Position numbers and translations under genes: made by a program. The notes beneath the pieces were generated by a model that saw only the letters and a list, made by a program, of their open reading frames with translations, was not told the origin of the DNA and ran no database searches. A stretch of DNA of 64,000 bases from Gammaproteobacteria bacterium (GTDB lineage: Bacteria > Pseudomonadota > Gammaproteobacteria > UBA12402). The stretch is taken from positions 792-64,791 of the forward strand of contig JASFHH010000005.1 in assembly GCA_050123335.1 (NCBI GenBank), in the 5' to 3' direction. Shown one piece after another: positions 8,530 to 20,415 of the stretch; within the stretch, counting starts at the first letter, position 1; each line of letters begins with the position of its first letter.

Positions 8530-9324
8530 TTAACTTATAAGTAATTTTTCTGCTCGTTTAACATCTTCAATTGTGTCAATTCCAGACATGGCTGGTCGAT
8601 CTTGATAATCAACAGGCACTGCTCGAATTGCAAAACCATTTTCTAATAAACGTAATTGTTCTAATCCTTCTAGTTTTTCGTAATGAGTTGGTTTTAAAGT
8701 CACGTATTTTTGCAGCATCTCATAACGATAACCATAAATACCGATATGGCGATAAATTGGCGATAGATTAGATTCTTGTCTAAATTTTTCTTCTTTGCGG
8801 ATTGCCGGAATAATATTTTTGGAAAACCATAGTGTGTTATTATTTTTATCTAAAATGACTGTAGTACCGCTAAATGGAGTTTGTTTTTTGTGTTCACGTA
8901 ATTTATCTAATTCTTTCCAGCTTAATTGTGTAACTGGTGTGATGACTTTTACGTTTTTATCCTGAGTTGCGGTTTCAATTAATTTAGTAATAAAGTCTGG
9001 TGGAGTAAATGGTGTATCGCCTTGCAAATTTAAGATGAATTCAGGTTTATAGTTTAACTGTTCAACTGCTTTCCATGCCCGATCGGTCCCGGTAGGGCAG
9101 CTGACAGGTGTCATTACAAAATTAGCGCCAATTTTTTTAGCATGATCGGCGATACGTTTATCATCAGTAGCAATTAATATTTTTGCATCAGCAATATTTT
9201 TAATTGCATCAATTGCTATTTCATAAACGCGTTGCAGCATAGTTTTACCAGCAATTTTAATTAATGGTTTGCCGGGTAATCTAGTGGACGCATATCGCGC
9301 TGGAATTATAATTGTGGTTTTCAT
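8530..9324 (-). CDS. kdsB: 3-deoxy-manno-octulosonate cytidylyltransferase (CMP-KDO synthetase)
   Basis: MKTTIIIPARYASTRLPGKPL N-terminus, typical for KdsB. Start trimmed to the M at 9324; the upstream extension runs through a REP element. Confidence 0.9.
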   Translation of the reverse strand: MKTTIIIPARYASTRLPGKPLIKIAGKTMLQRVYEIAIDAIKNIADAKILIATDDKRIADHAKKIGANFVMTPVSCPTGTDRAWKAVEQLNYKPEFILNLQGDTPFTPPDFITKLIETATQDKNVKVITPVTQLSWKELDKLREHKKQTPFSGTTVILDKNNNTLWFSKNIIPAIRKEEKFRQESNLSPIYRHIGIYGYRYEMLQKYVTLKPTHYEKLEGLEQLRLLENGFAIRAVPVDYQDRPAMSGIDTIEDVKRAEKLLIS

Positions 9325-9330
9325 GTCATT

Positions 9331-9358
9331 GTCATCCCGCGGCTTGACCGCGGGATCC
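9331..9358. repeat. REP-like hairpin (same family)
   Basis: gtcatcccgcggcttgaccgcgggatcc. Confidence 0.6.
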
Positions 9359-9364
9359 ATGTTG

Positions 9365-10081
9365 TTATAAATGTTTTTTAATTTCTTCGGCAATTAATTC
9401 TTTAATTAAATCTAAATTATTCCTTTCGGATTTTTTCGGACCAAGTCCGATTGATGCGCGCTTCTCTAAAAGTTTCTTTAGATTTTCTGGAGCAAAAGTT
9501 TTTGGTGTTCCCATTTGTTGCGCATAAAATTGTATTTTAGCTACATGTTCAACTAATTCAAGCCGCAAATAAGCTTGTTCAACGCTATCGCCAATAGCTA
9601 ACACACCATTTCCCGGCATGATCAATACATCTGCTTGATTAAGTGCTTCAGTAATTATGCTATCATTTTCTGGTGCGCCTGGCATCGCAAAAGGAGTGAC
9701 TGGTATAATATCACCGATGGAAACTATAGCTTCAGGTAAACATGGAGTTAGTGGCTTGCCAACTAATCCATGCGCTGTGGCAAAAGGAGGATGAGAGTGT
9801 ACCACAGCTTTTGCTTCGGTGCGTGCATTGTAAGCTGCTAAATGTAATTTAATTTCAGAGAACGGTTTGCCAATTCCCTCAATTTTTTTGCCGTCCATAT
9901 CTAAAGTGATAATCATATCAGCAACAATGTTACCTTTGCTAACCGCAGTTGGAGTTGCTAGCAATACATCATCAAACTTTGCGCTAATGTTGCCGTCGTG
10001 ATTTGCACCAAAACCTTTTTCGTCGAGTTTTTGTGAATATTTTACGATTTCATTGGTTATGTAGGTTTTTCTATCGCCCAT
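9365..10081 (-). CDS. Class II aldolase/adducin-family protein (FucA/AraD-like), last gene of the BMC operon
   Basis: Metal-binding His context HSHPPFATA, an ANHDGNIS-type N-terminal region, and ~238 aa as typical for L-fuculose-/ribulose-phosphate aldolase or epimerase. Confidence 0.75.
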   Translation of the reverse strand: MGDRKTYITNEIVKYSQKLDEKGFGANHDGNISAKFDDVLLATPTAVSKGNIVADMIITLDMDGKKIEGIGKPFSEIKLHLAAYNARTEAKAVVHSHPPFATAHGLVGKPLTPCLPEAIVSIGDIIPVTPFAMPGAPENDSIITEALNQADVLIMPGNGVLAIGDSVEQAYLRLELVEHVAKIQFYAQQMGTPKTFAPENLKKLLEKRASIGLGPKKSERNNLDLIKELIAEEIKKHL

Positions 10082-10086
10082 TATTT

Positions 10087-10740
10087 TTATCCAAGTTGTT
10101 TGCTTGTGCCACTTGCTTGCATTTTATTTAATTGTTCCAAAATCGAACTTGCGGCTTCCGCTGCAGCATCAATTTCCGCTTCTGGTCCGCTCATGGTTAA
10201 ACGTCCCGATGCACCGAATGGTTTAATTTGAATTAATTTAACTCGCGCAGCTTTTAATGCCTCGTTACATGCAATGGTTAAATAAGCTGCGGGAGTTGTT
10301 TCCATAATCAAAACAGATTCGCCAGCTAAAACCATATTGCCGCGCGCAGTTCCGGTAAACATAATTGCATGATCTTGCTCAACGCTTCTGATAATTTTAT
10401 TAGTCAAGATTTTAACTTCAGCGCGATCATTTTCGTTTAATCCTGTTTCACGAAGTACTGCTTTGCCTGCTTCTTTTACTTCACCTTGGTCAGCGTGTTG
10501 TACTTGCATTAAACCGAATTGCCTTTCAGTTACGACAGAACCTAAGCGCACAGCAGTATTTTTTAGGGCCATATCAATCATGCTGTGAATTTCCATCGCC
10601 GGTGCGATTTCCAGCATTAATGCAGCATCATACTCTGCCGGATCGTAAACCTTATTATCTTTAGCAATAAATTGTGCTAGTTGCGGTTGTAAACTATCAA
10701 TAAAAATTAAAGTTCTTAGTTCAAAATTACTTTTTGTCAT
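10087..10740 (-). CDS. BMC shell protein, tandem-domain BMC-T of EutL/PduB type
   Basis: 217 aa. Segments align with E. coli EutL (…AYLTIACNEALKAARVKLIQIKP… vs …[31 protein letters not shown]…). Located inside the BMC operon. Confidence 0.6.
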   Translation of the reverse strand: MTKSNFELRTLIFIDSLQPQLAQFIAKDNKVYDPAEYDAALMLEIAPAMEIHSMIDMALKNTAVRLGSVVTERQFGLMQVQHADQGEVKEAGKAVLRETGLNENDRAEVKILTNKIIRSVEQDHAIMFTGTARGNMVLAGESVLIMETTPAAYLTIACNEALKAARVKLIQIKPFGASGRLTMSGPEAEIDAAAEAASSILEQLNKMQASGTSKQLG

Positions 10741-10752
10741 GTTGCTCTCCTG

Positions 10753-11655
10753 TTAGTACTTTCCACTTTTGGCTTTTGTGCCGGTTACAATTGCAATACT
10801 AGCTGATGCGCCGATGCGATCAGCGCCTGCTTCAATCATTTTTTTTGCATCCTCTGTGCTGCGAATTCCTCCGGAAGCTTTTACTTCCATGTCACTTCCT
10901 ACAATTTTGCGCATTAATGCAATATCTTCCACAGTTGCACCGCCGGAACCAAAGCCAGTAGAAGTTTTTACAAATGCAGCGCCGGCAGTTTTGGATAACG
11001 CACACGCAATAACTTTTTCGTCGTGATCCAAATTAGAAGTTTCCAAAATAACTTTTACTTTATGTGGTTTGGATGCTTCAACTACTGCTAGAATATCGCG
11101 ATAAACAGTTACATAATCTTTGGATTTTAGTGCACCAATATTAATTACCATATCAATTTCTTCAGCGCCGTTTTTGATTGCTTCTTTTGCTTCAAACGCT
11201 TTAGATTGCGGGCTGGCTGCTCCTAATGGAAATCCGACAACTGCAATTGGTTTGACACTACTACCTTTTAATTCGCGTGATACAAAAGGGATATTACTTG
11301 AATTTACACAAACAGTAGCAAAATGATATTTTTTTGCTTCATCGCAAACTTTTTTAAGTTGTTCACGGGTTGCATCTGGTTTTAATAAGGTGTGATCAAT
11401 CATGCCGGCAAGTTTTGTGTCAACATTACGATCGATTCCTGGATTGGCGCCGATGCGATCTGCGCCTTCACGCAACATATTATTTATTGCTTCAGGTTTT
11501 TTAATCACACATAAGCCGCAATGTTCGCATGAGTCTGGTGATAAACCGCATGCACCAGCAGCAACTAAATCTGGTTGAGTTATTCCAGCTTGTTGTAATT
11601 TTTGAGTCACGCGGCGTGCAATAACTTCAACAAGTTCTTCGATTTTATCGGTCAT
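10753..11655 (-). CDS. deoC: Deoxyribose-phosphate aldolase (DERA) with ~80-aa N-terminal extension (putative encapsulation peptide + Cys cluster)
   Basis: The DeoC core starts near LAGMIDHTLLKPDAT, with catalytic Lys context FVKTSTGF. The extension MTDKIEELVEVIARRVTQKLQQ is predicted to be an amphipathic helix, followed by CGLSPDSCEHCGLCV. Confidence 0.85.
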   Translation of the reverse strand: MTDKIEELVEVIARRVTQKLQQAGITQPDLVAAGACGLSPDSCEHCGLCVIKKPEAINNMLREGADRIGANPGIDRNVDTKLAGMIDHTLLKPDATREQLKKVCDEAKKYHFATVCVNSSNIPFVSRELKGSSVKPIAVVGFPLGAASPQSKAFEAKEAIKNGAEEIDMVINIGALKSKDYVTVYRDILAVVEASKPHKVKVILETSNLDHDEKVIACALSKTAGAAFVKTSTGFGSGGATVEDIALMRKIVGSDMEVKASGGIRSTEDAKKMIEAGADRIGASASIAIVTGTKAKSGKY

Positions 11656-11674
11656 AATTATTCCCTCTTATATA

Positions 11675-11986
11675 TTATCTGGATCCCGGATCAACTGACT
11701 GGGTCCGGGATGACACATGCGCATGTGTCACTTTATCTACTATACCTACAATTACAGAGTGAAATGGATCATCTTTAGTTCCCAGCAATTGTCTGGCTGT
11801 ATTACCTTCGCGTTGAATTAATACAACATCGCCAGGTGCTGCTTGAGCTGTATCACAAGCTAAAAATGAATTACCTAAATCTTTGCCTTGTTCGTCAATT
11901 GGTTGCACGATTAAAACTCGATGTCCTTTGTAACAAGGATGTTTCTCAGTTGCAACTACATTGCCTTTAACTCTGGCTAAGATCAT
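11675..11986 (-). CDS. BMC vertex protein (BMC-P; EutN/PduN/CcmL family)
   Basis: MILARVKGNVVATEKH...GDVVLIQ...VIVGIVD motif pattern. The C-terminal 15-17 codons are read through a REP element plus a palindrome. Confidence 0.8.
   Translation of the reverse strand: MILARVKGNVVATEKHPCYKGHRVLIVQPIDEQGKDLGNSFLACDTAQAAPGDVVLIQREGNTARQLLGTKDDPFHSVIVGIVDKVTHAHVSSRTQSVDPGSR
11681..11730. repeat. REP-like hairpin (inverted orientation) plus adjacent 18-bp palindrome gacacatgcgcatgtgtc
   Basis: ggatcccggatcaactgactgggtccgggatgac. The stem variant GAC/GTC compensates relative to CGG/CCG in the other copies. Confidence 0.55.
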
Positions 11987-12318
11987 TCAAATATTTCCTC
12001 TTTATCTAAAATTCCAACATCTTCTTGATTAACTTGATCTACAATTCCGGTAATCGCAGCATCAACAGGTGTAAATGAATCTGGTAAAGTTAATGCAGCT
12101 TCTCTTGCTGTTATCCAATGTACTAAATCATTTAATCCTGCTTTTACCACTGGATCAACTGCAGCAATTGGTTTGCCTGTTGGTTTTAGATCGTCATTTA
12201 ATGGCTGAATCATTAAAATTTTTATGCCGTTTAAAGCCTCATGTTTTTGTGTTGCAACTACTGTGCCGATTACTTTTGCTAATTGCATTTTATATTCCTG
12301 TCCAATAAATTTCTTCAA
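11983..12318 (-). CDS. BMC vertex protein (BMC-P; EutN/PduN family), second copy
   Basis: MQLAKVIGTVVATQKH...IKILMIQP...ITGIVDQV. A more likely start is the M at 12288, which avoids overlap with the upstream gene. Confidence 0.75.
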   Translation of the reverse strand: MKKFIGQEYKMQLAKVIGTVVATQKHEALNGIKILMIQPLNDDLKPTGKPIAAVDPVVKAGLNDLVHWITAREAALTLPDSFTPVDAAITGIVDQVNQEDVGILDKEEIFE

Positions 12319-12853
12319 TCAAATCCGGATGCGGTGCTGGAATAATTTCACATCCTGCTAATAATCCTTCGGTTTTAATGTGTTTTTTTGCTGCATCAAT
12401 TGAAGCTTCAATGTCAGCTAATTTTCCGGTCATCACAAAATAACCTTTACCACCTAAACCGTTCGCTAATCTAATTTCTACTAATTTTGCTGGTGATGTT
12501 TTAGCGGCTAAATCTGCTCCAACAATGCAGGATGCGATTGAAAAAGTTTCGATAATACCAACGGCATCAAATTTTTTTATTTCAGTTGTTCCGGCAACAG
12601 CGGGAATCACATCCAAATGAATTTGCGGTAAGAATAAATTATTAATTACGCCATCATCGCCAACGTTAATACCTGCTTGCAATGATTCTTCGACATCGGC
12701 AACTTCGCCCGCAAAAATAACCATATATTTACCTGGGCAGATTGGGTTGCTGTTAAGAATTGTAACCGGAGCTTTTTTGGCAATTGCATCAGTTGCAAAC
12801 ATGCCTCGTGCTACTGAGTTGAATTCAATTAGTCCTAGCGATGGTTTTTGCAT
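12290..12853 (-). CDS. BMC shell protein, tandem-domain BMC-T of PduT type
   Basis: 187 aa with two BMC domains (LGLIEFNSVARGMFATDAIAKKAPV... and AVGIIETFSIASCIVGADLAAKTS...). A Cys in the second domain is consistent with the Fe-S-binding PduT type. Confidence 0.8.
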   Translation of the reverse strand: MQKPSLGLIEFNSVARGMFATDAIAKKAPVTILNSNPICPGKYMVIFAGEVADVEESLQAGINVGDDGVINNLFLPQIHLDVIPAVAGTTEIKKFDAVGIIETFSIASCIVGADLAAKTSPAKLVEIRLANGLGGKGYFVMTGKLADIEASIDAAKKHIKTEGLLAGCEIIPAPHPDLIEEIYWTGI

Positions 12854-14183
12854 ATTTAATCTCTATATAATTATCATTTACCTCAGTTATTTTGCCGTCA
12901 ATTGACGCGTGATAAACGGCGCCTAACTTATCTTGCGGCGTAGCCGCTATAATATCACATCTGCGTACCATTTGTCCTAGATTAACTTGGGAAATTGCAG
13001 GTGCTCCAACGTGTTTGTTTAGCGGAATGCGTACCATTTTGATTTGCTGTATTCCTGCAAAAACCGGTTTGCAATTATATTTTTCCAAGTTAAGTTTTTT
13101 CATTACCATTTGAATCGATGGTTTACGATTTTTAAATTGTGAATTGGCTTTAGCCGGTGCATTTTTATGTGGGCTTTTTACTCCACGAGATATTAATTCG
13201 CTTTTATATTCTGCAAAAATTTTGCGAGGTGAAAGATGCATAAAATCACAAGCAATCAATTCACACATGCCGCATTGGCTACATAAAAAAGCAGAAGTAA
13301 TATGCTTTGTTGGTTCAGCACTGTTGTATGCTATTGTGCGCATTGTCATGTGCGGATATAATTCGTGTCCTAATAAATTGCGCGGGCAAAGATCGGTGCA
13401 GCGAAAGCATTGGCAGCATGCAGATTTTGTTTGTTTGATTATTTGTCCCAAAGGTTTTTTTGCTTTACGAATTAATAAGTGATTTTTAGGTAATGCAATT
13501 ACACCACTGGTAGTTTTACCGATACCTTGATTCCAATCATCAACAATTTTTCCCATCATCGGGCCGCCATCAATTAAAACAGCGTCTTTAATTTTTAAGC
13601 CACCTGCTAATTTAATTAAATCGTTGTAAGTTGTGCCAATTGGAACAATTACAACTTTTGGTTCGCGAAGTTCTCCAATTAAAGTTACTGCGCGTTCAGT
13701 TATCGGTTTGCCGTTAACTGCATGTGCAATCTGCATTAAAGTGATTACGTTATTTACGACAATGCCAACGTTTAATGGGATGCCGCCTTCGGGAATTATT
13801 TTTCCGGTTACTTCATACACTAATAAAAATTCATCGCCTGCGGGATAATAATTATCTAACAAATGTAATTTGATCGATCCATCAGATGGTAAATGTTTTT
13901 TGATTGCATCAATTGCGTCGTGATAATGCGATTTTAATGCAATAATTCCTTGCTTAGCAGAAGTTGCTTGCATTGCATATTTCATGCCTTCGATTAATAA
14001 TTCTGGTTTTTGTACCATCATGGTGCGATCGCTGGCAAGAAGTGGTTCGCATTCAGAACCATTAGCAATGATGGTATCAACTTTTGTTTGTAATTTTACA
14101 TGTGTAGGAAATCCGCCGCCACCTGCGCCAATTATTCCGGCGTTTTTTACAGCTTGCACAATTTGTTCCGCTGTTTTTGGCAT
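12825..14183 (-). CDS. PduS/RnfC-family NADH-dependent Fe-S flavoprotein
   Basis: N-terminal GAGGGGFPTHVK (RnfC/PduS nucleotide-binding) motif. Two Cys clusters, CCQCFRCTDLCP and CSQCGMCELIACD, indicate 4Fe-4S ferredoxin-type sites. Confidence 0.8.
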   Translation of the reverse strand: MPKTAEQIVQAVKNAGIIGAGGGGFPTHVKLQTKVDTIIANGSECEPLLASDRTMMVQKPELLIEGMKYAMQATSAKQGIIALKSHYHDAIDAIKKHLPSDGSIKLHLLDNYYPAGDEFLLVYEVTGKIIPEGGIPLNVGIVVNNVITLMQIAHAVNGKPITERAVTLIGELREPKVVIVPIGTTYNDLIKLAGGLKIKDAVLIDGGPMMGKIVDDWNQGIGKTTSGVIALPKNHLLIRKAKKPLGQIIKQTKSACCQCFRCTDLCPRNLLGHELYPHMTMRTIAYNSAEPTKHITSAFLCSQCGMCELIACDFMHLSPRKIFAEYKSELISRGVKSPHKNAPAKANSQFKNRKPSIQMVMKKLNLEKYNCKPVFAGIQQIKMVRIPLNKHVGAPAISQVNLGQMVRRCDIIAATPQDKLGAVYHASIDGKITEVNDNYIEIKYAKTIARTN

Positions 14184-15616
14184 CAGACAATCCTAAAATA
14201 TCCGCTTAATACACATCTTCTAATTCTGGTAAAGTGACGTGCGGTAGTAACACCTTCGCCGGTAGGTGAAGCAATGGTAAAAGATGCTGGACCTTCACCT
14301 TCAATACCGAGTCCTGCAAGTGCCGGACCATTTTTTACAAAAATGGAGGTATTCATTTTTACCGCCATTTTATGCAAGTGTTCAACATTTTTTGAATGCA
14401 TAACCGAAGTATGAAAACATCCATCTTCTAATTGATAAGCAATTTCAATTGCTTCATCAACATCGTTTGCACGAATAAATGGTAATACCGGCATTAATAA
14501 TTCTAATTTTGCAAATGGATGATTAGCATCAGTTTCAACAAAAGCTAAACGTTTAGATGGATCGACTTGCAATCCAATTTGTTGCAAAATTAATTGAATG
14601 TCTTTGCCAACCCATTTTTTATTTGGGTGGCCATCTTGCACAATAATTTTTTCTAATTGTTTAGCTTGGTAATTATTAAGTTCAACTGCGCCATGTTTAA
14701 TTAATGCTTTTTTTAATTCGTCTGCGCAAGCGCGAGTTGCAATAATATTTTTTTCAATTAAACAAATAATATTATTGTCAGTGGATGCACTTATCACAAT
14801 ATCGCGGCCGGCTTTATCAATATCTGCAGTTTCATCAACTACAACTGGAGGATTGCCTGGTCCTGCAGCAATAACTTTTTTGCCGGATTGCATTGCGGCA
14901 TCTACTACAGCAGGGCCGCCGGTAACTACCAGCAAATTAATTTTTGGGTGTTTCATTAAAGTTTGTGCTGATTGAATTGTTGGGTTGATCACGGTTGTGA
15001 TTAAGTTTGGCGGACCACCAGCAGAAATAATTGCTTTATTAATTAAGCTGATAGTTAAGACAGATATTTTTTTAGCGCTTGGATGTGGATTAAAAGCAAC
15101 AGCGTTGCCTCCAGCAATCATAGCAATGGTATTGCTGATAATTGTTTCTGATGGATTAGTGCAGGGCGTGATAGAACCGATTAATCCATAAGGTGCATGT
15201 TCTAAAATGGTTAAGCCGTTGTCGCCGGTAAAAGTTATTGGTTCTAAATCTTCTATGCCCGGAGTGTTGTTAATTGCCAATTCATTCTTTTTTAATTTAT
15301 CTTCGTATCTACCAAGTCCAGTATCGGAAAGTGCTAATCGTGCAATTTGTTCAATGTTTTCGGTACAGATTTCACGAATAGCAGTAATGATTTTTTTACG
15401 TTGCTCTATCGGAATGGTTTTATATTCGAGGAAAGCTTTTTCTGCAGCAAGAATTGCTTCTTCGATATCAGTAAAACACCCCGGGGTGTCATTAGTTTGT
15501 GTGGTGATATTTGGTTTTTGTGGTGCGCTTTTTATTTTAGTTTCCGCAGCAGGAATTACCAATTTATTAACTACACGATCGACAATCGAACTTATTTGTT
15601 GTTCGCTAATAGACAT
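14183..15616 (-). CDS. CoA-acylating aldehyde dehydrogenase (EutE/PduP family) with N-terminal encapsulation peptide
   Basis: ALDH fold with catalytic Cys context (SITPCTNPSE region). The N-terminal amphipathic helix QQISSIVDRVVNKLV followed by a Pro/Thr/Gln linker is typical of PduP/EutE targeting peptides. Confidence 0.85.
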   Translation of the reverse strand: MSISEQQISSIVDRVVNKLVIPAAETKIKSAPQKPNITTQTNDTPGCFTDIEEAILAAEKAFLEYKTIPIEQRKKIITAIREICTENIEQIARLALSDTGLGRYEDKLKKNELAINNTPGIEDLEPITFTGDNGLTILEHAPYGLIGSITPCTNPSETIISNTIAMIAGGNAVAFNPHPSAKKISVLTISLINKAIISAGGPPNLITTVINPTIQSAQTLMKHPKINLLVVTGGPAVVDAAMQSGKKVIAAGPGNPPVVVDETADIDKAGRDIVISASTDNNIICLIEKNIIATRACADELKKALIKHGAVELNNYQAKQLEKIIVQDGHPNKKWVGKDIQLILQQIGLQVDPSKRLAFVETDANHPFAKLELLMPVLPFIRANDVDEAIEIAYQLEDGCFHTSVMHSKNVEHLHKMAVKMNTSIFVKNGPALAGLGIEGEGPASFTIASPTGEGVTTARHFTRIRRCVLSGYFRIV

Positions 15617-15667: not shown

Positions 15668-15955
15668 CTATTTAGAATATTTAGTTTCGCCGTTGATTTC
15701 TAGTTCATCAACAATTGCCATAATGACAGCGTCCACTGGTTTACCGGAGGTCGAGATTGTTTGACGTGCAGAACTTCCTGCTGCGACCAAAACAATTTCA
15801 CCAACTCCAGCGCCGACGGAATCAGCTGCGATTACAAACGAATTCATCGGTTTGCCATCAATATCAACATGTTTAACGATTTGAAGTTTTAATCCTTCGA
15901 GCTTTTCATCTTTTTGGCTGGAAACCACGGTGCCGATAATTTTACCTAATTGCAT
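15668..15955 (-). CDS. BMC vertex protein (BMC-P; EutN/PduN family), third copy
   Basis: MQLGKIIGTVVSSQKDEKL...GEIVLVAAGSSAR...VIMAIVDEL. Confidence 0.8.
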   Translation of the reverse strand: MQLGKIIGTVVSSQKDEKLEGLKLQIVKHVDIDGKPMNSFVIAADSVGAGVGEIVLVAAGSSARQTISTSGKPVDAVIMAIVDELEINGETKYSK

Positions 15956-16146: not shown

Positions 16147-16440
16147 TTATTTGGATTTAGATTTTTCGCGACCTAAAGGTAATGCAGAATCGATATTTGC
16201 ATGTGGTCTTGGGATGACATGTACCGATACTAATTCGCCAACTTGTTGTGCAGCACGGGCGCCGGCATCGGTTGCAGCTTTAACTGCGGCAACATCACCA
16301 CGCACTACAGCAGTTACATAACCACCACCGATTTTTTCGTAGCTGACTAATTCAACTTTAGCGGCTTTTACCATGGCGTCACTTGCTTCTACCATTGCAA
16401 CAAAACCTTTGGTTTCGATCATTCCTAATGCATCAGACAT
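16147..16440 (-). CDS. BMC hexameric shell protein (BMC-H; PduA/EutM family), first gene of the operon
   Basis: [56 protein letters not shown] is a canonical BMC-H sequence. Confidence 0.9.
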
Positions 16441-16601: not shown

Positions 16602-16904
16602 TTATATTTTGTTGTTTCCGATAATAGGTTTTTTCTCTTCAACATTTTCATTTTTTTTAGATTCAATTGTAGCATTTTTAGAAAGTTCACGAATAATTTT
16701 AGCATGACATATGCCAGTGCCTACATTTATAGTAAGGCCTGTAAAAAATAAAACAAATCCCCCTATTGCTCGAAGTGCGGCAAGAGCATCTTTGGAGGTC
16801 ATGCCATCTACTGATAAAACTGGGCCTCCAACCATAAGAGTAATTCCTGCCATATATAAAAAACAAGGACCTATAGAACGTTGAAGACATCCAAAGAAAC
16901 TCAT
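16602..16904 (-). CDS. Small membrane protein (100 aa), hypothetical
   Basis: Three predicted TM segments. No family recognised. Confidence 0.35.
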   Translation of the reverse strand: MSFFGCLQRSIGPCFLYMAGITLMVGGPVLSVDGMTSKDALAALRAIGGFVLFFTGLTINVGTGICHAKIIRELSKNATIESKKNENVEEKKPIIGNNKI

Positions 16905-18986: not shown

Positions 18987-20102
18987 TTAATGCCATCTAT
19001 ATCTAAATTTTAAATTATTGAATTTATTATATCCAATATAATTCATATGCTGAAGCCGTCCCACAAGAATGCCTGGGGCAATATTCAATTTTTTGGCAAA
19101 TTCAATAATCAGGGCGGTACTCAGTTTATCATTTTTCTTTAACCATTCATTTAAGCGTGATGAAGGGATTAAAGTTTCTGCTGCATATTTATCTGCTTCT
19201 AATTCTTCGGAAGATTTATTTACAGTCTTGTTATTTATTTCAACAAAAAATTCTTTTTTGCTGTGTTTAATTATGTGACCTATTTCATGAAAGATTGTGA
19301 ACCATAAAATGTCGGCTGTTTTACCTCTTAAGCTTAATTGAACTAATGCTTTTTCAGGATTCAACCAGCAAGAAGCTCCATAAATAGGAACTTTTGGAAA
19401 AGGCTTTATAAAGACAATGGCGATTCCACAATCAGCACAAATATTCTTTAATTTAGGAACAAATATTTCTGGATCTTTTTCTTTAGTAAGCGCGCGCATT
19501 TGATCGAGTGATGAAATTAATTTTTCTTTATCAAATAGTTTGCATTGAATTTTTTCTCCTTCAAGCTCTCCCTTTCTTAACCAAACGCTAATAGCACCAA
19601 TATCTGATTTTAGATTCATGGCTTTCCTAAATGCAAGCCGTCGCCGTGTCCATCCTTGTTCCCATTGCTCTGGTGTGGCTACTCCAAAAAAATTTAATAT
19701 GGCAATCATTTGCTCCGCAACAGTATCGCCACATTTAAGAAGCCAACCTCTTTTTTTCATTTCTTTGATTGGAAACTGCTTAAGCCAATCTTTTTCTGCA
19801 GTTAAACGTTCTAACTCTTTTTGCTGGGCAAGGTAAGCACGGTAATTGGCTTCTCTTTGATTCCAAAATGCAGCAGGAGTACCAAGTGCTCTTTCCAACT
19901 GAATAGCTGTCTCTGAAGTAATTGCGGCTTTACCTTTGATAATTTCGTTGATAGTTTTTAATGGGCGACCAATACGTTCTGCAAGCGCTACTTGAGTCAT
20001 ACCTCGTTCTTCAAGAATTTCAAGCAATGTTGCTCCAGGGGCAGAAACGATGTCTGGTTGGTAAAAAAGTTTACTTTTTTCAATCATGGGTATCCTCCAC
20101 AT
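18987..20102 (-). CDS. HigA-like XRE-family HTH antitoxin fused to ImmA/IrrE-family zinc metallopeptidase (COG2856)
   Basis: N-terminal HTH (LLEILEERGMTQVALAERIG…) and a C-terminal HEXXH motif (FHEIGHIIKH). Likely start at MIEKSKLF. Confidence 0.7.
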   Translation of the reverse strand: MWRIPMIEKSKLFYQPDIVSAPGATLLEILEERGMTQVALAERIGRPLKTINEIIKGKAAITSETAIQLERALGTPAAFWNQREANYRAYLAQQKELERLTAEKDWLKQFPIKEMKKRGWLLKCGDTVAEQMIAILNFFGVATPEQWEQGWTRRRLAFRKAMNLKSDIGAISVWLRKGELEGEKIQCKLFDKEKLISSLDQMRALTKEKDPEIFVPKLKNICADCGIAIVFIKPFPKVPIYGASCWLNPEKALVQLSLRGKTADILWFTIFHEIGHIIKHSKKEFFVEINNKTVNKSSEELEADKYAAETLIPSSRLNEWLKKNDKLSTALIIEFAKKLNIAPGILVGRLQHMNYIGYNKFNNLKFRYRWH

Positions 20103-20415
20103 TTATTATTTTTATAGCGTTAACTAAATTCCAATTTATTCCACCACCATCTTTTTTATTTATACTCTTATTTGTTGGTTCAAATATCAATCTTAATGGA
20201 TGTTCCAAATCAAGAGAAAGCAACCCTTTTTTATCACCTATTAGTTCGTGGCAACGACCTGGTAATGTCTTAAAAGCTTCTAAATTAGGAGCAGCTTGTA
20301 AATCATCAAGGCGCGCTCTAATCTTTCGGGCACAATTTTTACCATAAGTTTTAAGCAACTTTTTTTCTGAGTTACAGATTTTCTGAAGCTTTTTATTTTT
20401 AAAGGTGATCTCCAT
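20080..20415 (-). CDS. higB: HigB-like toxin (RelE/ParE superfamily, plasmid-maintenance killer type)
   Basis: …ARKIRARLDDLQAAPNLEAFKTLPGRCHELIGDKKGLLSLDLEHPLRLIFE… is the HigB/RelE-like pattern. Sits upstream of and overlapping the HTH gene. Confidence 0.7.
   Translation of the reverse strand: MEITFKNKKLQKICNSEKKLLKTYGKNCARKIRARLDDLQAAPNLEAFKTLPGRCHELIGDKKGLLSLDLEHPLRLIFEPTNKSINKKDGGGINWNLVNAIKIINVEDTHD

Follow-up and report, generated by a model that had tools for sequence, protein, structure and literature searches.

The N-terminal extension of a microcompartment deoxyribose-phosphate aldolase: a putative encapsulation helix and a conserved four-cysteine motif

Why does the signature enzyme of an SPU-type microcompartment carry a long N-terminal extension, and what would four cysteines do within it? 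Few metabolosome types are as widespread as the SPU microcompartments, whose signature enzyme is a deoxyribose-phosphate aldolase (DERA). The question is raised by a 64,000-nucleotide stretch of a gammaproteobacterial metagenome-assembled genome (MAG; GenBank assembly GCA_050123335.1, contig JASFHH010000005.1), here called the window, which encodes such an enzyme among microcompartment shell genes. Its extension is translated and conserved and has a modular architecture. With somewhat better than even confidence, we read the extension as an encapsulation helix followed by a structural adaptor mini-domain that would be stapled by a metal held by the four cysteines (Cys4). The gene and the parts of its product are listed below, with AlphaFold2 confidence given as predicted local distance difference test scores (pLDDT).

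10753-11655, minus strand: DERA (deoC) gene, 300 residues plus stop, signature enzyme of an SPU-type microcompartment locus (open reading frame, Pfam and TIGR00126)
11663-11668, minus strand: Shine-Dalgarno sequence AGAGGG, 7 nucleotides upstream of the ATG at 11655 (read from the sequence)
11590-11652, minus strand: residues 2-22, amphipathic helix, putative encapsulation peptide TDKIEELVEVIARRVTQKLQQ (AlphaFold2, pLDDT 72-82)
11551-11589, minus strand: residues 23-35, variable linker (alignments; pLDDT about 63-68)
11509-11550, minus strand: residues 36-49, Cys4 motif C36-x6-C43-x2-C46-G47-x-C49, putative metal-binding knuckle (conservation; pLDDT about 81)
11434-11508, minus strand: residues 50-74, comprising K53-P54, a helix (54-62) and GADRIGAN (conservation; pLDDT 79-84)
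11404-11433, minus strand: residues 75-84, connector and short helix (80-83) leading into strand β1 (AlphaFold2 secondary structure)
10756-11403, minus strand: residues 85-300, class I aldolase TIM barrel (pLDDT >90; identity to solved DERAs)

Positions 11416-11655 of the minus strand hold the codons for residues 1 to 80 of the 300-residue reading frame, and the three peptides singled out in the prediction from which this work started, MTDKIEELVEVIARRVTQKLQQ, CGLSPDSCEHCGLCV and LAGMIDHTLLKPDAT, are all found in its translation. Only 19 nucleotides separate the ATG at 11655 from the stop codon TAA of the BMC-P gene before it, and the frame has no start codon earlier than this one. More than 100 homologs with 68 to 94% identity cover the full query, extension included, over 100% of its length. 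In comparisons with six orthologous loci, the proportion of nonsynonymous differences (pN) stays below that of synonymous differences (pS) in the helix (pN 0.21-0.31, pS 0.74-1.09) and in residues 36-75 (pN 0.28-0.34, pS 0.55-1.0), whereas the two are about equal in the linker, residues 23-35. The rival possibility is that the upstream methionine is mis-called and the protein truly begins at M85, leaving the extension untranslated; it draws on two NCBI records of an identical (P0069) and a near-identical (P0087) protein, both labelled "MAG: Gammaproteobacteria bacterium" and both annotated as 216 residues from this internal methionine, which corresponds to window positions 10753-11403. Against it stand the Shine-Dalgarno sequence 7 nucleotides before the ATG, the short intergenic gap, an open frame whose protein sequence is conserved among more than 100 homologs and 105 cluster representatives (see below), and the low pN in the helix and the cysteine module; furthermore, exactly such an artefact is documented, since automated annotation often misses the DERA extension (Dwyer et al. 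2024, PMC11585597). We therefore regard an internal start as very improbable and the M85 start in the NCBI records as the annotation error documented for SPU DERAs. Taken together, the Shine-Dalgarno sequence, the 19-nucleotide gap, the full-length homologs, the selection pattern and the known artefact argue, at the sequence level, that the start at 11655 is real and that the extension is translated and under constraint, as the original prediction had assumed in starting the protein at the upstream methionine. Annotation from M85 hides the whole extension, so that the Cys4 motif is invisible in those records.

By its sequence, the protein is a class I deoxyribose-phosphate aldolase. Pfam DeoC spans residues 85-283 (E-value 1e-16), and the NCBIfam deoC equivalog TIGR00126 matches residues 82-290 with 277 bits against a cutoff of 117, which places the protein in the DeoC family. 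Foldseek against the PDB retrieves the enzymes of Geobacillus (8qps), B. halodurans (6msw) and S. suis (5dbu), with TMt values of 0.94-0.97 and root mean square deviations of 0.8-1.5; these solved DERAs (about 220 residues, 58-62% identity) superpose on the barrel only and not on the extension. Because the DeoC and TIGR00126 matches and the solved structures cover the barrel only, residues 82-85 mark roughly where the canonical enzyme begins, and the extension measures about 81 residues, in agreement with the 80 or so residues proposed at the outset. Residues D168, K230 and K259 do not vary among 116 homologs (motifs EIDMV, FVKTSTG and VKASGG) and probably represent the catalytic Asp/Lys/Lys set, mapped by motif to E. 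coli D102, K167 and K201. The same catalytic alignment has been described for DERA, and a related SPU6 DERA is active (Dwyer et al. 2024, PMC11585597).

The extension opens with a helix, predicted by AlphaFold2 for residues 2-22, which has a hydrophobic moment of 0.57 (shuffle P about 0.012) and in which V9, I12, V16 and L20 are nearly invariant in alignments. The linker that follows varies in both length and sequence among homologs and is without constraint. A terminal amphipathic helix of about 15 to 25 residues followed by a poorly conserved linker before the enzyme is the usual form of an encapsulation peptide, and the PduP/EutE-type peptides, with amphipathic terminal helices of about 18 to 20 residues, are built in the same way. 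The original prediction had likened this helix to that of the neighboring aldehyde dehydrogenase (AldDH), and the likeness is borne out by the predicted helix and by the moments of the two (0.57 and 0.49). Residues 2-22 are thus a putative encapsulation-type helix, of the same type as the AldDH helix and the C-terminal tail of the class II aldolase in the same locus. There is one marked difference from the classical arrangement: in classical encapsulation peptides the enzyme domain follows directly, whereas here a predicted mini-domain of about 40 residues carrying the Cys4 motif stands between the linker and the barrel.

The cysteines C36, C43, C46 and C49 are spaced as C-x6-C-x2-C-x2-C. In an alignment of 149 sequences with a mean column identity of 23%, each of them, together with G47, is conserved in at least 90% of sequences; at G64 and R67, substitutions are absent or very rare even where the identity of the region is just 23-59%, and D79 and A83 hardly vary. 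From a shallow alignment, AlphaFold2 modelled residues 23-80 at pLDDT values of 50-60; with the 149 diverse sequences, the values were 81 for residues 41-50, 84 for residues 51-60 and 79 for residues 61-70. Since confidence climbs to about 80 with the diverse alignment, the models support a folded module at residues 36-74 rather than a linker. The cysteine cluster had at first been placed in a linker; the cluster itself is real, but it opens the mini-domain, and the true linker is confined to residues 23-35. Profile comparison with hhalign aligned residues 55-74 (EAINNMLREGADRIGANPGI, 11434-11491) to residues 268-287 (EDAKKMIEAGADRIGASASI, 10795-10854) with a probability of 76%, a P value of 2.2e-5 and 50% identity. 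The latter segment is α8/β8 of the barrel, the counterpart of the helix and "GAxRIG" segment in the extension, and a separate profile search of the PDB gave weak matches of the module to the same C-terminal segment in other DERAs. The module thus looks like a partial internal duplication of the last helix-strand unit of the barrel, joined to a cysteine knuckle.

A profile built from the extension only was compared with 1.84 billion cluster representatives and recovered 110 proteins, from which four eukaryotic C2H2 zinc-finger arrays ("CSECGKCFIRK" repeats) and one fibronectin-repeat protein were excluded as spurious. In the remaining 105, the extension continues into a DERA barrel in 68 and the protein ends right after the module in 22; the other 15 are frameshifted, variant or from very short contigs. 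No convincing non-DERA carrier of the module was present among the 110 matches. A CxxCxxC core occurs in 86 of the survey proteins, with a fourth cysteine 3 to 11 residues upstream (most often 6) in 79 of these; the main clade has the spacing C-x(3-11)-C-x2-C-x2-C. Among 87 representatives anchored on GAxR at 50% clustering, 76 (about 87%) have at least four cysteines, seven have three, and four have two or fewer. The DERAs of Anaerolineales/Chloroflexi (SPU6) show C-x3-C-x4-C-x3-C in 113 of 119 cases, corresponding to positions 40/44/49/53 when anchored on the invariant glycine, and other small clades have C-x4-C-x4-C plus a cysteine within GAC-R. In rare lineages (P0141, P0226, P0218 and P0228), the cysteines have been lost while the helix and "V-x-N-I...G-x-x-R-I-G" are retained. 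A steady count of four with clade-shifting spacing looks like the pattern of a set of metal ligands. The cysteine cluster had been suspected to be a nonstandard, perhaps locus-specific feature; these alignments contradict this, as it is family-wide in extension-bearing DERAs of many phyla.

The association of the module with the barrel persists in larger proteins. About 17 proteins of 430-516 residues hold the module internally. Four of them (P0130, P0144, P0160 and P0161) start with an amphipathic helix, which is followed by a PF02441 flavoprotein domain, then the Cys4 module and finally DeoC (Pfam), and in P0165 the order is RpiB, Cys4 and DeoC. The added domains sit between the N-terminal helix and the cysteine motif, and the Cys4-helix-GAxRIG unit stays joined to the barrel in every fusion seen. 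Flavoprotein-DERA fusions have been reported for microcompartments of Hodarchaeales archaea (PMC12747264); the fusions recovered here, of this type and of the RpiB-DERA (SPU3) type, share with the window DERA the Cys4, helix and GAxRIG before the barrel, whereas the window DERA has no inserted flavoprotein or RpiB domain. One flavoprotein-DERA gene (P0161, L013 10001-11425) belongs to a complete SPU locus, together with genes for PTAC, AldDH, MNdh, BMC-T and RpiB. A scan of genome contigs with a narrow search pattern yielded 10 loci, and the co-occurrence with MNdh is judged from a handful of loci and the literature.

Some other carriers were recorded in the course of the survey. A 155-residue reading frame (P0143, L018 143-610) begins with a DERA-like helix and cysteine motif and continues into a 2x[4Fe-4S] ferredoxin pair and a hydrophobic tail; it lies on a metagenome contig of 622 bp and may be either a true recombinant or a chimera made in assembly. 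For some DERAs with extension and Cys4 (L015 3800-4717 and L016 2220-3137, P0128; L006 5840-6745), a distance of 4-10 kb around the gene is free of shell genes; the neighbors include DUF362 and phospholipid-synthesis genes, and one belongs to a Myxococcia MAG. By analogy with those reported for HO-type microcompartments, these may be satellite cargo genes. In a PVC-group MAG (L010 6700-10909), a small satellite-like cluster is made up of three BMC-P genes together with genes for an FAD-linked oxidase, RpiB and a Cys4 DERA; no BMC-H, AldDH or MNdh gene was found within 10 kb of it.

Part of this picture is already known. All SPU DERAs carry an N-terminal extension of about 70 residues that is absent from DERAs outside microcompartments and has been described as a helix and two low-confidence β-strands; its deletion converted an insoluble SPU6 DERA into an active soluble dimer, and the whole extension was read as a putative encapsulation peptide (Dwyer et al. 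2024, PMC11585597). With an extension of this type opening with an amphipathic helix, the window protein is an SPU DERA. The extension and helix noticed in the original prediction are real but not new: both the extension and its encapsulation-peptide reading had been published. The SPU6 DERA of Chloroflexi bacterium GWB2_54_36 likewise combines a class I barrel with a helix-bearing extension of 70-80 residues, stands beside AldDH and shell genes and belongs to enzymes whose start codon is often mis-annotated, and relatives in its clade keep the four cysteines. The two differ in cysteine spacing (C-x6-C-x2-C-x2-C against C-x3-C-x4-C-x3-C) and in surroundings, the window locus lacking RpiB and having a class II aldolase that ends in an encapsulation-type peptide, a CcmP/CsoS1D-like BMC-T and MNdh with PduT. 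A cysteine motif, metal or iron-sulfur (Fe-S) cluster in DERA is mentioned neither in PMC11585597 nor in the 2014 and 2021 locus catalogues, the MNdh paper or the Asgard microcompartment preprint, and targeted full-text searches returned nothing, an absence from the literature searched that is not proof of absence. What the present analysis adds is the two-part division of the extension, the conserved Cys4 with clade-specific spacing, the tie of the module to the barrel and the partial helix-strand copy.

In the reading we favor, the helix (residues 2-22) would make the enzyme co-aggregate with other cargo, dock to the shell, or both, by analogy with the literature on relatives, and residues 23-35 would be a free linker between helix and mini-domain. 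C36, C43, C46 and C49 would bind one metal center, either Zn(Cys)4 or Fe-S, that staples a short loop onto the conserved helix and "GAxRIG" segment copying the last helix-strand of the barrel; the mini-domain (residues 36-74) would then join a flexible targeting arm to the TIM barrel as a rigid adaptor and might also offer a surface for interactions. Translation, conservation, modular build and predicted fold are shown by the data, and the metal, its kind and its function are matters of inference: the Cys4 motif probably binds a metal, the site most likely has a structural role, and Zn(Cys)4 and a half-ferredoxin Fe-S site appear about equally plausible. The site is probably not part of the catalytic mechanism, since the extension-deleted SPU6 enzyme is active (PMC11585597). 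CxxCG is also a signature of rubredoxins and zinc knuckles, and a structural Zn(Cys)4 lobe with the spacing C-x2-C-x2-C-x7-C occurs in medium-chain alcohol dehydrogenases. That lobe and the window motif both place CxxCxxC and one distal cysteine in a short loop, and the lobe serves structure rather than catalysis, in a part of the protein not concerned with redox chemistry; however, the distal cysteine of the window motif lies upstream, in mirrored order, and there is no kinship in sequence or fold. Several points weigh against the adaptor reading. The N-terminal profile had no significant match to a known fold among PDB sequences, the weak ones being DERA C termini, eS26, the TnpB zinc finger and ferredoxins; in Pfam, searched up to an E-value of 10, nothing but sub-threshold Fer4 matches covered the module; and the published AlphaFold2 models of the SPU6 enzyme are of low confidence in this region (PMC11585597). 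Moreover, parsimony is what makes a structural role the default, and the flavoprotein-Cys4-DERA fusions and the ferredoxin-like local motif may allow a redox role.

Such a role is the core of the main competing explanation, in which the Cys4 binds a redox-active [4Fe-4S] or [2Fe-2S] cluster that relays electrons to MNdh(PduS)/PduT or a flavin, or senses O2 or redox state and switches the assembly or activity of DERA. The segment C43-x2-C46-G-x-C49-x3-K53-P54 reads like the ferredoxin motif CxxCGxCxxxCP in which lysine has taken the place of the final cysteine, and it shares with Pfam Fer4 (PF00037) C-x2-C-G-x-C-x3-[K]-P and a short helical turn after the third cysteine; the sub-threshold alignment sets residues 39-50 onto Fer4 positions 4-15. 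Fer4-type families are the commonest sub-threshold class in Pfam, each found in 2 to 5 of 15 N-terminal sequences (Fer4 itself in 5 of 15), but all Fer4 scores, 12-13 bits, are under gathering cutoffs of 21-25, so that by this threshold the module is not a Fer4-clan member (best 12.6-13.2 bits). Proteins with 4Fe-4S clusters are among the weak PDB matches. The complete CxxCxxCxxxCP is absent from the window DERA, in which, as in most relatives, position 53 is lysine while P54 is kept; it is present in P0208, and SPU6 sequences have a cysteine at position 53. Compared with a ferredoxin, the fourth ligand would be the upstream cysteine, and there is neither a second motif nor a (βαβ)2 fold; CxxCxxC with a distal cysteine also holds structural zinc in the alcohol dehydrogenases mentioned above. 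The surroundings point both ways. The PF02441 domain lies directly upstream of the motif in some DERAs, the window locus carries MNdh and a CPGK PduT, and the DERA-like N terminus of P0143 runs into a complete 2x[4Fe-4S] ferredoxin, but the latter is known from the single 622-bp contig that may be chimeric, the DERA reaction is non-redox, the SPU6 enzyme is active when its extension is deleted (PMC11585597), and the cysteines have been lost in several lineages. SPU6 loci have been reported to lack the MNdh/PduT system (PMC11275729, PMC11585597), and in a complete SPU6 locus (L019), whose DERA has four cysteines, no MNdh/PduT gene was found within 10 kb on either side. A general role of the Cys4 in the MNdh/PduT conduit was considered and rejected, as SPU6 loci, judged from a handful and from the literature, keep the Cys4 without the conduit. 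The roles that the original prediction had offered for the cluster, as a redox handle, shell-docking module or regulatory site, are thus candidates of which the link to this conduit is weakened. Because SPU6 DERAs retain the cysteines without MNdh/PduT, and because the few lineages that lost them kept the helix and GAxRIG, we prefer a structural role over a relay; a redox-active cluster seems unlikely, yet is the strongest of the rivals.

At the other extreme, all 80 residues might be a long encapsulation peptide and linker whose cysteines bind nothing and are relics or form occasional disulfides. This would accord with the treatment of the entire extension by Dwyer et al. (2024) and its solubilizing deletion (PMC11585597), with the low AlphaFold2 confidence for residues 23-80 from the shallow alignment, and with the few natural variants without cysteines. 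Yet the four cysteines are kept at 90% or more where regional identity is about 23-35%, with compensating shifts in position; purifying selection acts on the cysteine region, in contrast to the true linker; and the module reaches pLDDT of about 80 with the diverse alignment and persists as an internal segment of fusion proteins. We consider an inert extension improbable, although less so than the internal start discussed above, and return to the encapsulation helix with a metal-stapled adaptor as the preferred reading.

The operon around the DERA gene, all of whose genes lie on one strand, has the following members and marked segments.

16147-16440: BMC-H, first in operon order
15668-15955: BMC-P, second
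14183-15616, minus strand: acylating AldDH, third (Aldedh Pfam match)
15551-15607, minus strand: encapsulation-peptide-like N-terminal helix SEQQISSIVDRVVNKLV of this AldDH (hydrophobic moment 0.49)
12825-14183, minus strand: PduS/MNdh homolog with FMN-binding and 4Fe-4S domains (Pfam Complex1_51K, Fer4_17, SLBB and RnfC_N)
12290-12853, minus strand: PduT-like BMC-T with pore motif ICPGK (two BMC domains; best NCBIfam match the eut_PduT model, below cutoff)
11983-12318 and 11675-11986: two BMC-P genes, directly preceding DERA
10087-10740: CcmP/CsoS1D-like double BMC-T, following DERA
9365-10081, minus strand: class II aldolase with an encapsulation-peptide-like C-terminal tail, last listed gene of the operon
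9368-9421, minus strand: the tail NNLDLIKELIAEEIKKHL of this class II aldolase (translation)

DERA thus stands after two BMC-P genes and before the double-domain BMC-T, whose best NCBIfam match is CcmP with a score below cutoff. With BMC-H, BMC-T and the BMC-P triplet as well as an acylating AldDH all encoded beside DERA, the locus is of the SPU type, and its gene order is shared with six other genomes, of Coxiellaceae, other Gammaproteobacteria, Aminicenantes and unclassified MAGs. RpiB is absent from the locus. This absence, the class II aldolase tail, the double BMC-T and the PduS homolog fit the description of SPU5, for whose class II aldolases a C-terminal encapsulation peptide has been reported (Dwyer et al. 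2024, PMC11585597); by gene content, the locus fits an SPU5-like microcompartment. The genes for the PduS/MNdh homolog and the ICPGK PduT-like BMC-T (12290-14183) overlap by 29 nucleotides, and such a pair is described in the literature as a conduit for electrons from NADH to the outside. At the end of the operon, a KdsB-like reading frame (8530-9393, TTG start) overlaps the class II aldolase by 29 nucleotides, its start probably being called too early. Just upstream of BMC-H lies a 100-residue reading frame (16602-16904) with hydrophobic, membrane-like segments and no Pfam match. Adjoining the locus (18987-20415), a gene with a helix-turn-helix (HTH) domain and a Peptidase_M78 (IrrE-like) domain overlaps a HigB-like toxin reading frame, and the two are a probable toxin-antitoxin or regulator pair.

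The locus adds an SPU5-like gammaproteobacterial MAG member to the known SPU microcompartment group. To our knowledge, all work on the SPU signature enzyme up to now has used forms from which the N-terminal extension had been removed. For construct design, the two-part division suggests removing residues 1-30 rather than 1-80, which would spare the Cys4 module, and a missing cofactor may be another cause of the insolubility of the full-length enzyme. Should the less likely Fe-S explanation apply, the SPU signature aldolase would be an Fe-S protein, its cluster tentatively an O2- or redox-sensitive switch of cargo assembly or activity, and in the flavoprotein-Cys4-DERA fusions a luminal electron path from flavin to Fe-S could operate instead; if true, this would mean a redox cofactor on a non-redox signature enzyme, missed in published work through deletion of the extension. 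In either case, the finding refines the recent model of the SPU DERA extension and overturns nothing in it.

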